DNA of 64,000 nucleotides from Patescibacteria group bacterium (GTDB lineage: Bacteria; Patescibacteriota; Patescibacteriia; JAQUQO01), in assembly GCA_028716045.1 (NCBI GenBank), contig JAQUQO010000001.1, positions 725,176-789,175 of the forward strand. Direction: 5' to 3'. Below are positions 2,745 through 52,778 of this stretch, in pieces. Every line of letters begins with the position of its first letter. Positions within the stretch are counted from its first letter, which is position 1. The notes below the pieces were generated by a model. The model made no database searches and was not told the origin of the DNA. It saw only the letters and a program-made list of their open reading frames with translations. The translations under genes were made by a program, and so were the position numbers.

Positions 2745-2870
2745 ATTATTAGTTTGTCATAATTTATATGACAATTTTATTATACCATTTTTAGCCAAAA
2801 ATGTCAATATCTGACCGGGTTAGTCAAAATAAAAATGACTATATTTTAGCTTATTTTAGCCAAAAAACCC

Positions 2871-6462: not shown

Positions 6463-7221
6463 ATGAAACCAACGGATTTGGAAAAATTTGGATTGTCGGA
6501 CAAAGAGGCCAATGTTTATTTGGCCGCTTTGGAGCTGGGGACCTCCACCGTTCAAAAAATTTCCGGTAAAGCAAAGCTAAAACGCCCCACGACTTATGTG
6601 ATAATAAAATCTCTTACTAGCAAAGGGCTGATGAGCAGTTTTCAGGAGGGGAAAAAACAATTTTTTGTGGCCGAAAATCCGGAACGATTAAACAGTTTCA
6701 TGGAGAATCGAAAAAGAGAATTAGATGATAAAAAGGAAGAATTGAAAAAATTACTGCCGGAGCTAAAAACAATTTATAACGCCGCCGAAGGGAAGCCTAC
6801 TGTAAAATTTTATGAAGGCAAGGAAGGCCTCCTGATGATGGTGGAAGAATTTTTGGAATCGGATATAAAAGAAGCTATGATGATTTATTCAAACGATCTG
6901 GTTGAAAAAGTATTCACGGAAAAAGAACGCGCTGATGCCAGAGAACGAAGAGCTCATAAACAAATACGCGTCCAAAGTATTTATACCTCCGCTGCGGCAG
7001 AGCGTCTGCCTTCAAAATTCAGCGAGAGAAAAAGAATCCCCGAAAATAAGTTTCCCCTGTTCTGCGATATAACTATTTTCGCCGATAAAGTCCGTATCGC
7101 TTCTTTGGGCGACCGACTATCCGGCATTATTATCCAGGATAAAGCCATTGCTGAAACTCTTAAATCTATTTTTAAACTGGCTTGGGAAGGTGCGGAAAAG
7201 TATAACCAATCAAAAACATAA
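6463..7221 (+). CDS. TrmB-like HTH transcriptional regulator
   Basis: N-terminus LSDKEANVYLAALELGTSTVQKISGKAKLKRPTTYVIIKSLTSKGLM resembles the TrmB HTH. It sits immediately downstream of the pilB-like gene. Confidence 0.5.
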   Translation: MKPTDLEKFGLSDKEANVYLAALELGTSTVQKISGKAKLKRPTTYVIIKSLTSKGLMSSFQEGKKQFFVAENPERLNSFMENRKRELDDKKEELKKLLPELKTIYNAAEGKPTVKFYEGKEGLLMMVEEFLESDIKEAMMIYSNDLVEKVFTEKERADARERRAHKQIRVQSIYTSAAAERLPSKFSERKRIPENKFPLFCDITIFADKVRIASLGDRLSGIIIQDKAIAETLKSIFKLAWEGAEKYNQSKT

Positions 7222-7283: not shown

Positions 7284-7846
7284 TTTTGGGGCAAGGCTTA
7301 GAAATGTCCGAATGTACAAAAAATCGTGGAATCGGTAGATTTTAAGACACTCTTGATATCGCCCCGTTGCCGAAGGGAGGTTCTTCCTTCATCTTTTTTT
7401 CTTTCTCTTGTCTGTTTTTTGGTCTGATTGACAATTGGCAGATACTCTATCTGTGCTACTTACTAGTCGTTCACCTTACATACCTCCTTTCAATTTTGAG
7501 GGTAATTATTGGGATTTTTATAGGTCCTTCCCCAACCTCCATAGAGAAGGACCTACTTATTCCCTTAAAATTTAGTCAGGCATAACACCCTCCTTTGTTA
7601 CTGGTTGACTAAATACACCGCTATTCTTTTAAAATAACAAAATTACTGCTGGCTCCTATATTATCATATGTCTTATATATTGTCAATAGTGGTTGACAAA
7701 GGCCTGTGGATAACTTTTTAAAAATACCCCGTAAAAAATTATTATTTTCTATAAATGTCATAAAAAAATAACAATATTATGAGCTTTATTTTTAGCTTAA
7801 ATTAGCCAAAAAATTAAATAATATTTATAAATTAAGTCAGGGGGGC

Positions 7847-7875
7847 TTGACAAATTTTTTAGGGTGTGTTATAGT
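7847..7875 (+). promoter_or_regulatory. consensus sigma70-like promoter (TTGACA-17-TATAGT) driving an ORF-free transcript
   Basis: TTGACA at 7847-7852, a 17-nt spacer, TATAGT at 7870-7875. A TTAGCTTAAATTAGCCAAAAAA element and a DnaA-box 9-mer lie upstream. Confidence 0.6.
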
Positions 7876-7881
7876 GGTGCT

Positions 7882-8365
7882 ATCAGTTGTCGAAGTTCCT
7901 TAAAACTAAATTTAAAAAATTCTGACAAGCACCGGGATAAGGGTAAAAACTTCCCAAAATATTGTATTCCAACGGCCCCCTACGGCCTTGGGATATTACT
8001 CTTCCTTTTATGGAGAGTGCCCATGCTTGTTACTAGGGGCTACCACCCCCGGTGTTTGTCAGAATCTAAAATTTTTGCACAGTTTGGGGTAGTGTAGGAG
8101 CCGGTTACTTCGACTAAAAAGAGATAACCAATTTGTTGCTTAGCCATCCTCCGTTTAAGGAAGAAAATGGCTAAACGCAATTTGCTTTGCAATATGCTGA
8201 AGTAAATTGTGGCGGAATGAAAGTTCCACCTCTGCTCTGCGCGAAAGTGTAAAGCAGGGGCCAAAGCGATACGGCGCCGCGGCAAGCACCGACCCCGCCT
8301 CTTCTCCCCAAATTGAGCAATTTTACATGCCCGACGATAATTATTTCGTCGGGCTCCTTTCTCAA
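7882..8365 (+). ncRNA. candidate structured non-coding RNA (putative Y-RNA-like partner of the adjacent Ro60/Rsr)
   Basis: There is no credible ORF or RBS in this stretch. An 18-bp helix pairs 7919-7936 (ATTCTGACAAGCACCGGG) with 8048-8065 (CCCGGTGTTTGTCAGAAT) and encloses internal hairpins. A 9-bp GCCCGACGA...TCGTCGGGC hairpin at 8330-8357 is followed by a U-rich tract. The transcript lies immediately 5-prime of rsr. Confidence 0.45.
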
Positions 8366-8539
8366 GTCAGAAACTTATCCGGCTTGAGAAAGGGGCTTGG
8401 TAGTGTAGATAAGGGATACTTCGGATATCGGTTTCTATTTAAGCATTGCCCTTGTCACTTTTTCTCCAGGAACCTTGTAATTTGATAACACAAAACTGCC
8501 GTCTGATAAATATCGGACTGGTGTAAGGAGGGAATTTAA

Positions 8540-25145: not shown

Positions 25146-25224
25146 GAAAACGCTTTGGCGTCAAGCCCTTATAAATAGCCCAATTTCTTTGTGGATAAAG
25201 TGTTAATTCAACCCTCAAAAATCC

Positions 25225-25253
25225 TTGACAAACATTTGACCTTATTGTAAGAT
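25225..25253 (+). promoter_or_regulatory. rRNA promoter (TTGACA-17-TAAGAT)
   Basis: TTGACA at 25225-25230, a 17-nt spacer, TAAGAT. A DnaA-box 9-mer (25190-25198) and a TTAGCTAAAATTAGC element lie nearby. Confidence 0.5.
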
Positions 25254-25471
25254 TATTTCACGGTCTTTGAAAACCGTTTTTTAGCTAAAATTAGCAATCT
25301 TTGCGGTTACAACGTCTAAAAGTGGTTAGAGATATCCACGATAAAAAATCTCAAGAGACAATCACTTAGGTGTGGTGGTCTTATTAAGTAAATCCGTTTA
25401 ACTTAATATTCTCTTATATTTTGAGAGTTTTGTAGTCGGGGCTATTGTAAAATAGTTCCGATAAAACTCTT

Positions 25472-26950
<1,479 letters not shown>

Positions 26951-27061
26951 CTAGGGAGAAAAAACAGATAGAATGTTCGAATTCGACATTCTATCCATTT
27001 AGGTCGACTCCGAGCAATCGGAGTAACGTTGTAACCACAAAGGTCTGCTAATTAGTGAAAA

Positions 27062-27100
27062 AGATTGGCTCTTTACTCTTGATAATGCCAATCTTTTTTG
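27062..27100 (+). terminator. rho-independent terminator between 16S and tRNA-Ile
   Basis: AGATTGGC...GCCAATCT stem followed by TTTTTT. Confidence 0.6.
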
Positions 27101-27107
27101 GTATAAT
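27079..27107 (+). promoter_or_regulatory. promoter (TTGATA-17-TATAAT) overlapping the preceding terminator
   Basis: TTGATA sits in the terminator loop, followed by a 17-nt spacer and TATAAT at 27102-27107. Upstream of tRNA-Ile. Confidence 0.45.
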
Positions 27108-27203
27108 ACATAAATAAATTGAGGCCGTTGATTAATTTAACGGACTCATCCTGATCCCGCTTAGCGGGAGAAGGATCTCGGAACGCTACTTAAAAGACCC
27201 CTC

Positions 27204-27280
27204 GGGCGCGTAGCTCAGTTGGTTAGAGCGCCACTCTGATAAAGTGGAGGTCGATGGTTCAACTCCATCTGCGCCCACCA
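27204..27280 (+). tRNA. tRNA-Ile (anticodon GAT), CCA encoded
   Basis: Cloverleaf by eye: GGGCGCG acceptor, anticodon loop CTGATAA, T-arm GATGGTTCAACTCCATC. Confidence 0.85.
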
Positions 27281-27392
27281 AAGAAAGATATTTAAATACT
27301 CTTTTAACTGGCGGGATGATAAAATAGAAGTTGATAATAAAACTCTCGTAGTCCCGAGTATTCGGGACGGAGACCCCGACTTTATGTCGGGG

Positions 27393-27407
27393 CATCTGCG
27401 CCCACCA
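27393..27407 (+). repeat. duplicate of the tRNA-Ile 3-prime end (CATCTGCGCCCACCA), preceded by GC hairpins
   Basis: Exact repeat of the last 15 nt of tRNA-Ile lying about 125 bp downstream. It is preceded by CCCCGAC-TTTAT-GTCGGGG and GTCCCGA-GTAT-TCGGGAC hairpins. Confidence 0.7.
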
Positions 27408-27428
27408 AAATAAATAAAACCGGCGGGA

Positions 27429-27505
27429 GGGCACCTAGCTCAGTTGGTTAGAGCGTCACATTGACATTGTGAAGGTCAGAGGTTCAACTCCTCTGGTGCC
27501 CACCA
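27429..27505 (+). tRNA. tRNA-Val (anticodon GAC), CCA encoded
   Basis: Acceptor GGGCACC/GGTGCCC. Anticodon stem TCACA/TGTGA with loop TTGACAT. Confidence 0.8.
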
Positions 27506-50967: not shown

Positions 50968-51419
50968 ATATATTTTAAAAATTATTTTATTAATTATTAA
51001 AATTTTGGATAACAAAAAATCTCCCCACAAAGGAGTTTCGGGGGCGAGTTTAAACTAAAAGATGGATTGTTTTTCAGCTAAGATAAGCATGAAATTTTTG
51101 CCAAGCCGTTCACAATTTTTAATGGGAAAGTCCCTTTTTGCTTTGAACGGATTCCTTCTGACGAAGGAAAAATGGCTAATATAAAAGAAAAAACGCTCGA
51201 TAGAAATAATTGACTTTTACGTATCTTTTATACTAACAAAGTTTAAATAAACTGTCAAGCAATTCTAAGTTGTCAAGTATTTGATTCTTTTATCTAAAAT
51301 TAGCCAAAATTGACGAAATCTCTGATTTCTATCCACAAGCGCATATTAACCCACTAATAACACTTTATCCACAAAATTATTTTTTTATCTAATATTAGCC
51401 AAAAAATATGGGATGCGTC

Positions 51420-51448
51420 TTGACAAAATCGTTAAAATATGCTATTAT
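51420..51448 (+). promoter_or_regulatory. promoter (TTGACA-17-TATTAT), first of two near-identical tandem promoters
   Basis: GTCTTGACAAAATC...TATTAT. A second copy lies at 51590-51618 (GTCTTGACAAAATC...TATAAT). Confidence 0.45.
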
Positions 51449-51778
51449 AATTTGTTATGGATAAAAATCCGGACGATGTAACGCTTGACCCTGTCTTTAA
51501 AAAACTTGAGCCGGGCAAGATAAGGGGATTTAAAAAGCTTGAATTATATCAAAAAACCCTTATTTTTCAACAAAATTCAGGCAAGGGTCTTGACAAAATC
51601 ATCCGAATGTGGTATAATAAAAGGTTAAAAATAAATGAACTTTAAAACCTATTGGGGAGAGAGTTATCCCGATTTCTCGGGATAAGCCCAATTGTTTTTA
51701 TCGGCTTTATTATAAATTTATACCAGCAGATACCGTTAACCAGTATCTGCTGATATATGATATATATGGAAGCTTAAA

Positions 51779-51837
51779 GGCGGTTGGAAAACTCTCTCAT
51801 TAACCAAAAACGGGACAGTTTTTCAACCGCCTTTTTG
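51779..51837 (+). terminator. hairpin followed by U-tract (terminator or attenuator) inside the long non-coding region
   Basis: GGCGGTTG...CAACCGCC stem followed by TTTTT. Confidence 0.4.
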
Positions 51838-52241
51838 GTTGCCAGAAACAGGAGGGGTAGAAACTTATTTGACGCCCGGCCTAAGGAGGGCCGGCGGCAA
51901 ATAAGCGGCGCTAACTTGGATAATTCCGGTTCTACTGGAAATATCCCAGCCAACCGCCATGCTAAGCGGTGCGCATGCGCACAAAAACTTGGCCTCTATC
52001 CTCCGCTTTCTGACAATCAAAATTGCTTCTGACATGGAGAGTTGGAGGGCACAAAATAATTTAAATAAAAATTAAACAACGCTCGGCCCTATCAATTCTC
52101 CATATCAGAGGCAATTAAGGCAATCGTTCGCGATTGCCCGTCCGTCCGAATCTATGAGGTTTATCTCCTTGTGAGGTAAATTTCATAGATTTAGACGGAC
52201 CTTGATTAACATTTGATTAACAATAGAGGAGGAAAAGGGAA

Positions 52242-52385
52242 ATGATGACGAAAACCCATAATGAGAAAAATTTCGGCGGCGTAAATCATTACAAGAGCTT
52301 CTTTGATTACAATTCGCTGATGAATTTTTTCTTCTTCGTCGTATTGGCCGGCGGTTTAATCACTATGCTCGCCATCGGAAACTAA
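52242..52385 (+). CDS. small hydrophobic peptide (47 aa), possible membrane microprotein
   Basis: Strong RBS AGAGGAGG precedes ATG. C-terminal FFFFVVLAGGLITMLAIG helix. Absent from the ORF track because it is under 60 aa. Confidence 0.35.
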   Translation: MMTKTHNEKNFGGVNHYKSFFDYNSLMNFFFFVVLAGGLITMLAIGN

Positions 52386-52778
52386 AAAAAAATCAAAAAA
52401 TGGGGGAGCCAAAAACTCCCCTCCATAACCTTCGTTAAAAAGTTTTTAGCGAGAGTTATGGAGGGGCGCGACAGTCGCAAGACAATCCGTAAGGATATTT
52501 GTCGCCTTGCCTTTCGCGGCTTGTGTGAGCTTAACCCTCACCCCCTCCAGACAAAAATAACGGCCTTTTTAAAAGCCGACTAAATAAATTTCCTCCTAGA
52601 TACGGGGGCGAACAGAAACATCTGTTTGCCCCCCGTTTCTTACCAAAAGAAAATAGTTGATAAAATTTTTATCAAACTTTTTTTCTTGATAAGAGAGTTG
52701 TTCTTTAAAAACCTTTTTGCCAATCGGTAAAAAGTTTAAAATAAATTTTTAACCTTTTAATTTAAGGAGGAACTAGCA

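Follow-up and report, generated by a model that had tools for sequence, protein, structure and literature searches.

The stretch of DNA analyzed here, referred to as the window, covers 64 kb of the 812-kb genome of a Patescibacteria (CPR) bacterium, and a 9-kb extension lying just outside it in the same genome (L213) was also included; the other L-numbers designate contigs or loci of other genomes. The window has a G+C content of ∼43% and carries a 16S rRNA gene without a linked 23S gene, six tRNA genes, and protein genes that include rpoB, rpoC, ftsH, clpP, smc, recA, ftsK, and a Ro60/TROVE gene. Two of its genes encode regulators of the TrmB family, one of 514 aa on the minus strand (1200 to 2744) and one of 252 aa on the plus strand (6463 to 7221). 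The nearest relatives of the window's RpoB are 63 to 72% identical and come from metagenome-assembled genomes (MAGs) labelled Patescibacteria, Magasanikbacteria, Buchananbacteria, and Parcubacteria. Non-coding DNA makes up ∼15.5% of the window and ∼22% of the other contigs.

A 22-base palindromic motif, composed of the halves TTTTGGCTAAA and TTTAGCCAAAA, recurs next to the strongest promoters of this bacterium and of its relatives. The window contains six strong copies of this 22- to 24-bp element, starting at positions 2844, 7790, 16870, 25279, 51288, and 51383, plus one isolated half-site. The preliminary description had listed seven stretches as variants of a single AT-rich element; all seven carry it, but the stretch at 2791 to 2800 proved to be the isolated half-site and not a full copy. 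A 20-mer consensus searched with up to 3 mismatches gave 6 matches (at 5 places) in the window and none in 100 dinucleotide-preserving shuffles. With a weight matrix derived from the window sites, the six copies scored 27 to 36 bits and the next best match 17 bits; the weakest copy, at 25279, has a degenerate right half. All six full sites and the half-site fall in non-coding DNA (chance for the six, ∼1e-5), and 59 of the 70 pattern matches in other contigs, among the matches listed, were intergenic, versus ∼22% of non-coding DNA. The bias toward intergenic DNA, on which the preliminary description had made a regulatory reading depend, was thus borne out. A seventh strong site of the same genome was found beyond the window, at L213:14747; it is intergenic, with no consensus promoter in the surrounding 62 bp.

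Five of the six full sites are located 16 to 57 bp upstream of a consensus TTGACA-17-TATAAT promoter. Site 1 (TTTTAGCTTATTTTAGCCAAAA, 2844 to 2865) is flanked by two divergent promoters. Its center is 16 bp upstream of the −35 box of a plus-strand promoter (TTGACA-17-TAAAAT with TG, 2871 to 2899), which leads into an operon encoding a 174-aa protein, a 330-aa protein, a PilB-like ATPase, and the 252-aa TrmB-like protein, and 47 bp upstream of the −35 box of a minus-strand promoter (TTGACA-17-TATAAT with TG, 2807 to 2779), which serves the divergent 514-aa TrmB-like gene. The isolated half-site (TTTTTAGCCAAAAA, 2788 to 2801, containing TTAGCCAAAA at 2791 to 2800) lies within the −35/−10 spacer of this minus-strand promoter, and a palindrome of the form TTGTCAT-N7-ATGACAA at 2754 to 2774 is a putative own operator of the 514-aa TrmB-like gene. 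Site 2 (TTTTAGCTTAAATTAGCCAAAA, 7790 to 7811) sits between divergent consensus promoters, in the region immediately downstream of the 252-aa TrmB-like gene that ends the operon behind site 1; its center is 46 bp from the −35 box of a plus-strand promoter (7847 to 7875) located before the non-coding stretch that precedes the Ro60/TROVE gene. Site 3 (TTTTTGCTAAAATTAGATAAAA, 16870 to 16891) is centered 56 bp ahead of the −35 box of a consensus promoter on the minus strand (16824 to 16796); this promoter serves a small, conserved stretch of non-coding DNA located between vanW and clpP.

Site 5 (TTTTATCTAAAATTAGCCAAAA, 51288 to 51309) has its center 40 bp upstream of the −35 box of the rpoB-proximal promoter (TTGACA-17-TAGTAT with TG, 51258 to 51230, minus strand), and a second TTGACA occurs between the two. 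Site 6 (TTTTATCTAATATTAGCCAAAA, 51383 to 51404), at a distance of 95 bp or ∼9 helical turns from site 5, is centered 26 bp upstream of the −35 box of a plus-strand consensus promoter (51420 to 51448) that enters a 1.3-kb stretch without long open reading frames (ORFs). Site 4, the weakest (TTTTAGCTAAAATTAGCAATCT, 25279 to 25300), is in the transcribed 16S rRNA leader, at about +19 to +42, just downstream of the promoter at 25225 to 25253. Of the stretches that the preliminary description had placed upstream of a TTGACA box or of a divergent promoter region, five full sites thus precede a consensus promoter, the 16S leader site is downstream of its promoter, and the half-site is inside a promoter spacer.

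The element is a quasi-palindrome, TTTTRGCTAAW joined to WTTAGCCAAAA, with its center between two bases and TTAGCCAAAA as its half-site. The copies in the window are imperfect palindromes. Because their left half is usually TTAGCTAA, which is self-complementary, the palindrome also resembles a 10-bp direct repeat in this genome. A direct-repeat reading (TTAGC-N5-TTAGC, as in a response-regulator site) was considered and rejected, as the relatives carry the inverted repeat TTGGCTAA...TTAGCCAA and variants of the direct type are uncommon. Perfect palindromes such as TTGGCTAATATTAGCCAA are present in L007 (TCTTGGCTAATATTAGCCAAGA), L074 (TTTTGGCTTAAATAAGCCAAAT), L106, and L137, so the window copies are better regarded as imperfect palindromes than as direct repeats; the matrix that retrieved the perfect palindromes of the relatives had been trained on the window sites alone. 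Among the matches listed, copies from a eukaryote-like satellite excluded, the inverted form TTTTGGCT...AGCCAAAA was the commonest and the direct-repeat form was rare. The most informative positions of the motif are G/C (GGC...GCC), above the A/T tracts. Together with the symmetry, this pattern argues for base readout by a protein of two-fold symmetry rather than for a mere A/T tract.

Being short, AT-rich, and palindromic, the element could also be a repeat without function, that is, a miniature mobile element, a REP-like repeat, an RNA hairpin or terminator, or a product of chance in AT-rich intergenic DNA, and its exact pattern does occur in unrelated DNA. When the metagenome was scanned with the exact degenerate palindrome, ∼50 of 120 loci, among the matches listed, corresponded to an unrelated eukaryote-like satellite and ∼10 to a class of sites upstream of ruvC from another lineage; these matches are noise or independent occurrences. 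However, the six copies resemble each other only over the core of 22 to 24 bp, with flanks that could not be aligned, which is not the picture of a MITE- or REP-like family, and we discarded a mobile repeat on this ground. Likewise, a terminator or structured RNA was rejected, given that the predicted RNA folds of the copies are weak (0 to −4.4 kcal/mol), are indistinguishable from those of shuffles (z-scores, −2.5 to +0.6), and have no Rfam match. Shuffles predict no match at all, and orthologous positions and spacing are kept across genomes with RpoB proteins 63 to 72% identical. A repeat devoid of function is therefore very improbable.

Among the ∼17 strong sigma-70-type promoters of the window, seven are preceded by the motif at 16 to 136 bp, and these are nearly all TTGACA-17-TATAAT-like with an extended −10 TG. 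Over the full set of usable loci, a strong sigma-70-type promoter within 62 bp and pointing away from the site accompanied 32 of 68 sites (47%), compared to 6.4% of the intergenic positions used as controls. The 40 distances from the motif center to the start of the −35 box form clusters at 15 to 16, 26 to 28, 33 to 37, 43 to 48, and 55 to 59 bp, within a full range of 12 to 59 bp between motif and −35 box. The ∼10-bp spacing of these clusters corresponds to helical phasing, and a Rayleigh test that counts orthologous promoters as independent gave a p value of ∼0.005 at a period of 10 to 10.5 bp, without any signal at 7, 8, or 12 bp; five distances of 51 to 52 bp were off phase. Relative to the transcription start, which is itself a prediction, the motif centers would be at about −51, −62, −72, −81, and −92. 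Proximity to promoters and periodicity both agree with the positional bias anticipated in the preliminary description. Other placements are the half-site in a promoter spacer, a site at the transcript start in L151, site 4 in the 16S leader, and L213:14747, showing that the element is not purely an upstream one.

These data also bear on the UP-like alternative of the preliminary description. As a UP element or intrinsically curved DNA, the motif would bend the DNA through its phased T4, A4, and A4-6 tracts, or directly bind the C-terminal domain of the alpha subunit of RNA polymerase, and so boost strong promoters without a dedicated regulator. The T and A tracts of the motif are indeed ∼10 bp apart, the motif is associated with strong promoters of the rRNA type, and at site 1, L207, L087, and L170, where the center is 15 to 16 bp from the −35 box, the A-run directly adjoins this box, where a proximal UP subsite would be. 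Yet the best conserved positions are G/C and not those of the A/T tracts, its two-fold symmetry contrasts with the directional nature of UP elements, and most copies lie farther out than the −38 to −59 region of UP elements, at 26 to 57 bp from the −35 box. In addition, some copies are located within a promoter spacer or a transcribed leader, and others are remote from promoters. An A/T-only consensus of defined direction at a fixed position of −38 to −59 is thus not what we observed, and we regard a UP element or curved DNA as rather unlikely. A regulator site is favored over the UP-like alternative by the information content of the G/C positions, the two-fold symmetry, and the variable distance (16 to ∼57 bp) to the −35 box.

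The promoters linked to the motif serve rRNA and tRNA genes (the 16S rRNA gene in the window, a tRNA-tRNA-16S operon in L160, and tRNA genes in L145 and L133), rpoBC, the pilus-ATPase operon that ends with the 252-aa TrmB-like gene, and genes for TrmB-like regulators. Other consensus promoters with a motif enter ORF-free regions, namely, 7.3 to 8.5 kb next to Ro60, 16.65 to 16.79 kb, and 51.46 to 52.75 kb. Around many sites in other contigs, no ORF begins within 700 bp in either direction, which is consistent with RNA genes; a search of the ORF-free regions and sites against Rfam gave nothing above noise. The sequence CTTTGAAAAC, which we take to be similar to boxA, follows several motif-linked promoters, as in rRNA leaders. 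Site 4 comes directly after such a boxA-like sequence.

In related genomes, sites were found at orthologous places and with the same spacing to the −35 box, so the comparison proposed in the preliminary description turned out in favor of a conserved element. Upstream of rpoB, the motif is present in seven genomes (window, L004, L007, L055, L113, L137, and L138), and four of them (window, L004, L007, and L055) share the order DnaA-box-like TGTGGATAA, motif, ∼10 bp, TTGACA, 12 to 22 bp, and TTGACA-17-(−10). L106 carries an orthologue of site 3 between vanW and clpP, with 56 bp to the −35 box in L106 and the window alike, and the conserved minus-strand promoter enters a conserved non-coding stretch of ∼130 nt in both. 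Orthologues of site 2 are located beside the orthologue of the 252-aa TrmB-like gene in L211 (26 bits) and L203 (17 bits), 45 to 46 bp from the −35 box of the same promoter. The arrangement of site 1 is conserved at the orthologues of the 514-aa TrmB-like gene and consists of the divergent −35 box, 3 to 5 bp, the full motif, ∼37 bp, TTGACA, a spacer holding the half-site TTTTTGGCTAAAA, TATAAT, the TTGTCAT-N7-ATGACAA palindrome, and ATG. The distance from the center to the −35 box is 15 to 16 bp in the window and L207, and the half-site occupies the same promoter spacer in L207 and L208. Of the site 1 motif itself, L207 has a strong copy, L208 and L209 have degenerate ones, and L210 has none. 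The TTGTCAT-N7-ATGACAA palindrome persists in all five genomes, although L210 has it in degenerate form (CTGTCAC...ATGATAA). Furthermore, we found no motif site in ∼100 kb of more distant CPR loci (L204 to L206, L209, and L210), where ∼9 would be expected at the density of the window. The motif is thus restricted to a subclade, in agreement with the lineage specificity that had been suggested for it.

The neighborhood of the sites also includes DnaA boxes. The motif does not match TTATCCACA, and separate boxes occur nearby: perfect TTATCCACA boxes lie within ∼110 bp of a motif site in three of three cases in the window and in one of one in the 9-kb extension, for which we estimate a chance of ∼5e-4 when restricted to intergenic DNA. 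Elsewhere, perfect boxes are ∼5-fold enriched near sites, although the numbers are small (5 in 11 kb versus 4 in 47.5 kb of other intergenic DNA). A box is kept beside the site in L211, L055, and L138, the site of L191 is within a cluster of five DnaA-like boxes, and the seventh site of our genome is 65 bp from a perfect parS (TGTTTCACGTGAAACA). The palindrome might accordingly serve chromosome organization, by binding a partner of DnaA (or ParB) at clusters of DnaA boxes, its closeness to promoters being secondary. Against this, the sites are spread over at least 67 kb and are not clustered at one origin, no GC-skew switch is apparent in the 73 kb examined, and site 1 has no DnaA-like box nearby. 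Moreover, the distance between box and motif (17 to 95 bp) and their orientation vary, and the conserved spacing is that to the −35 box. We therefore consider it quite unlikely that the element is primarily one of DnaA or chromosome organization, but, given the association with boxes, the element may have an architectural or replication-linked role. An origin of replication at 51.0 to 52.8 kb, suggested by DnaA boxes and missing ORFs, was not supported, as this region shows no skew switch and two boxes only.

Our preferred reading, to which we assign a probability of about 0.72, is that the element is a 22-bp two-fold-symmetric operator for a dimeric sequence-specific global regulator or architectural protein that would be restricted to a subclade of Patescibacteria related to Magasanikbacteria and Buchananbacteria. 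Intergenic bias, promoter association, phasing, and orthologous conservation all support the binding site for a global regulator that the preliminary description had proposed from the sequence. These features, the symmetry, and the clade restriction are observed; that a protein binds the element, which protein this is, and whether it activates or represses are inferred. The candidate protein would act at the strongest sigma-70-type promoters of the genome, which belong to the 16S rRNA, rpoBC, several genes for small or non-coding RNAs, and the genes of TrmB-like regulators. Bound at one of the helically phased positions ahead of the −35 box, it could contact or wrap RNA polymerase in the manner of Fis and of class I activators. 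Repression would instead be expected at sites or half-sites that overlap the core promoter or the transcript start, as in the spacer of the 514-aa gene, the 16S leader, and L151. Two observations fit the operator reading less well: the promoters concerned are already near consensus, so that activation is not obviously needed, and the seventh site (L213:14747) is away from any consensus promoter, beside a DnaA box and parS.

Among known systems, the sites of Fis and the UP elements at E. coli rrn P1 are similarly located upstream of rRNA, tRNA, and strong growth-related promoters and are similarly AT-rich with a few key G/C positions. Fis sites are helically phased at −71, −102, and −143, which recalls the phased positions found here. 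Sites for Fis (and IHF) also accompany DnaA boxes in E. coli, and the location of Fis beside DnaA boxes at oriC parallels the box association described above. In contrast, a Fis site is a degenerate 15-bp G-N13-C sequence of odd length, whereas the present element is a well-defined 22-bp palindrome of even length; to our knowledge, Fis is confined to Gammaproteobacteria, and we saw no Fis homologue among the genes examined here. The class I site of CRP (22 bp, AAATGTGATCTAGATCACATTT) shares with the element the 22-bp even palindrome, the 5-6-5 core, and the AT-rich flanks, as well as centers at x.5 positions one helical turn apart (∼−61.5, −71.5, −81.5, and −91.5). The cores differ in sequence, however, with TGGCT-N6-AGCCA here and TGTGA-N6-TCACA in CRP, and the cluster at ∼−51.5 would be unusual for CRP. 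The only cyclic nucleotide-monophosphate (cNMP)-binding protein in the window (62376 to 62930) has no recognizable helix-turn-helix (HTH) domain, and it is thus not supported as a CRP-like factor.

The operator OB of KorB from IncP plasmids (TTTAGCSGCTAAA) is a 13-bp odd palindrome with inward-reading TTTAGC that occurs at many promoters and at variable distances. Our element has the same half-site letters (TTTAGC/GCTAAA), is likewise found at many promoters at variable distances, and has one site beside parS, but its conserved half reads outward from the center (center-TTAGCCAAAA), and the relatives carry TTGGCTAA...TTAGCCAA. Overall, the element is best described as resembling an upstream site of the Fis or CRP class I type, with some placements typical of repressors, and it falls outside the UP-element, DnaA-box, terminator, and mobile-repeat families.

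Regulators of the TrmB family are dimeric winged-helix proteins that bind palindromic sites, activate from upstream positions, repress when their site overlaps or lies downstream of the promoter, and control global regulons. Examples of archaeal operators are the TGM, the TATCAC-N5-GTGATA sequence of TrmBL1, and those of the TrmB regulon of Halobacterium, and TrmBL2 is a chromatin-like global repressor of archaea. Here too the sites are palindromic, and TrmB-like genes adjoin several of them, one encoding a protein that aligns over its full length with TrmBL2. Differences are the sequence of the motif, the spacing of its half-sites, and the bacterial host with sigma-70 promoters. As leading candidate for the binder we tentatively propose the 252-aa TrmB/TrmBL2-like protein (6463 to 7221) or a paralogue of it. 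This protein can be aligned with TrmBL2 along its entire length (5box, E = 2e-5), and its predicted recognition helix reads LKRPTTYVII(K/N/R)SL in three motif-bearing genomes and VNRATTYFVI(D/E)GL in three motif-less ones. TrmB was the commonest Pfam family among the genes flanking sites (3 of 50, plus the genes of the window and L207); in L089 and L151, a site directly precedes a TrmB-like gene, and sites also adjoin such genes in the window (two genes), L203, L207, and L211. This adjacency is only weakly significant, because TrmB-like genes are so common (2 of ∼60 genes in the window and up to 4 per 20 kb in L206). In addition, orthologues of both TrmB-like proteins occur in motif-less genomes (L204 to L206, L209, and L210), and the regulator gene may sit elsewhere in the 812-kb genome, of which 64 kb plus 9 kb were covered. 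The gene for the 514-aa TrmB-like protein is probably regulated through the motif. As the binder of the motif, this protein was downgraded, since all its orthologues keep TTGTCAT-N7-ATGACAA at their own starts while the TTAGCC motif decays; it more probably binds that palindrome of its own rather than the 22-bp motif.

A full-text literature search yielded nothing on this motif, nor any earlier description of a regulatory motif at the promoter level in Patescibacteria (CPR). The mycobacterial BkaR, which came up as a literature match to the half-site sequence, was dismissed as a chance match. More speculatively, and with considerable doubt, an archaeal-type TrmB/TrmBL2-like protein might have been recruited in this CPR clade as a Fis-like master regulator that binds the palindrome at phased positions upstream of the promoters for rRNA, tRNA, small RNAs, and rpoBC, in many cases with a DnaA box close by. 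Such a protein could tie the production of stable RNA and RNA polymerase, and perhaps replication as well, to a nutrient signal in organisms that possess very few regulators.

CPR hosts are uncultivated and have genomes of ∼1 Mb with few transcription factors, so a conserved putative operator at the promoters of rRNA, rpoBC, and small RNAs offers a concrete handle on their regulation. The 22-mer can be synthesized and tested against a handful of recombinant candidate proteins, and the motif permits the prediction of regulons in hundreds of MAGs. It also marks several unannotated non-coding RNA genes. If the binder is TrmB-like, a family of archaeal type would act as a global regulator of bacterial housekeeping promoters.

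Divergent consensus promoters lie in a 1.3-kb ORF-free region (7300-8530, both strands) that separates the 252-aa TrmB-like gene from a Ro60/TROVE gene (8540-10252). In the plus-strand transcript of this region, the 5' and 3' parts show long-range complementarity (ATTCTGACAAGCACC ... GGTGTTTGTCAGAAT), and the transcript is therefore a candidate Y-RNA-like RNA. The region had no match in Rfam. The same layout, a TrmB-like gene next to a pair of predicted noncoding RNAs, was found again in loci L203 to L206 and L211 from other genomes.

Two further stretches of the window have the appearance of noncoding RNA loci. In the interval that separates the vanW and clpP 3' ends, a conserved noncoding stretch of ∼130 nt (16650-16795, minus strand; L106:4725-4920 in another genome) lies downstream of a consensus promoter that is itself conserved; this stretch is a candidate for an unannotated small RNA and likewise had no Rfam match. 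Upstream of rpoB, a 1.3-kb stretch without a long ORF (51455-52750) contains two consensus promoters (51420 and 51590) together with several hairpins resembling terminators and with boxA-like sequences, its sole ORF being one of 47 aa (52242-52385). It probably encodes one or more unannotated RNAs.

Several promoters associated with the palindromic motif are followed, 5 to 40 nt past their predicted starts, by CTTTGAAAAC or CTTTAAAA(A)AC, which we take to resemble boxA. These sequences occupy 2943-2952, 7895-7906, 25265-25274, 51495-51505, and 51650-51659 in the window and suggest that the transcripts concerned would carry rRNA-type antitermination leaders. One also lies behind the promoter of site 1, the motif copy ahead of a protein-coding operon. 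At 25470-27505, the 16S rRNA gene is followed by tRNA-Ile, tRNA-Val, and then protein-coding genes; since the 23S gene is absent behind them, the rRNA operon is unlinked. Upstream of rpoB, two TTGACA hexamers stand in tandem, 12 to 22 bp apart, in the window (51245-51272) and in loci L004, L007, and L055 from other genomes, and only the proximal hexamer is paired with a suitable -10 box.

The 514-aa TrmB-like gene (1200-2744) has a second palindrome, TTGTCATAATTTATATGACAA (2754-2774), between its -10 box and its ATG, probably the operator through which the encoded protein regulates its own gene. It is retained in the orthologous loci examined (L207 to L209), with a degenerate copy in L210. Homologues of the 514-aa protein fall into length classes of ∼375, 515, 650, and 790 aa, suggesting a winged-helix domain followed by 2 to 5 tandem C-terminal modules of ∼135 aa. 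No sequence match was found in the PDB.

In another lineage, the same palindrome as the motif (TTTTAGCYWAWWTWRGCTAAAA) occurs upstream of ruvC, between inverted TTATTCACA-like boxes (loci L083, L095, L123, L125, L163, L173, L187, L188, L193, and L195), where it either arose independently or belongs to a related system.

The 9-kb extension beyond the window (L213) contains two perfect parS sites (TGTTTCACGTGAAACA; L213:14822-14837 and 15563-15578), ∼3.2 and 3.9 kb past the right end of the window. They lie within a gene-poor region of 2 kb that includes tRNA genes as well as an unannotated, promoter-driven RNA, and where no clear GC-skew switch was seen. A perfect DnaA-box-like sequence is present at L213:14720-14728. 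Within the window, perfect DnaA-box-like sequences (TTATCCACA / TGTGGATAA) lie at 7705-7713, 25190-25198, and 51365-51373, and a copy with 1 mismatch lies at 51329-51337. In the window and the extension alike, the perfect sequences are found only beside the palindromic motif or beside promoters that are strong, namely those of 16S, rpoB, and small RNAs. Relatives (L211, L055, L082, and L138) keep such sequences at the equivalent position. As far as these sequences indicate, DnaA, or another factor, may regulate promoters in these reduced genomes.
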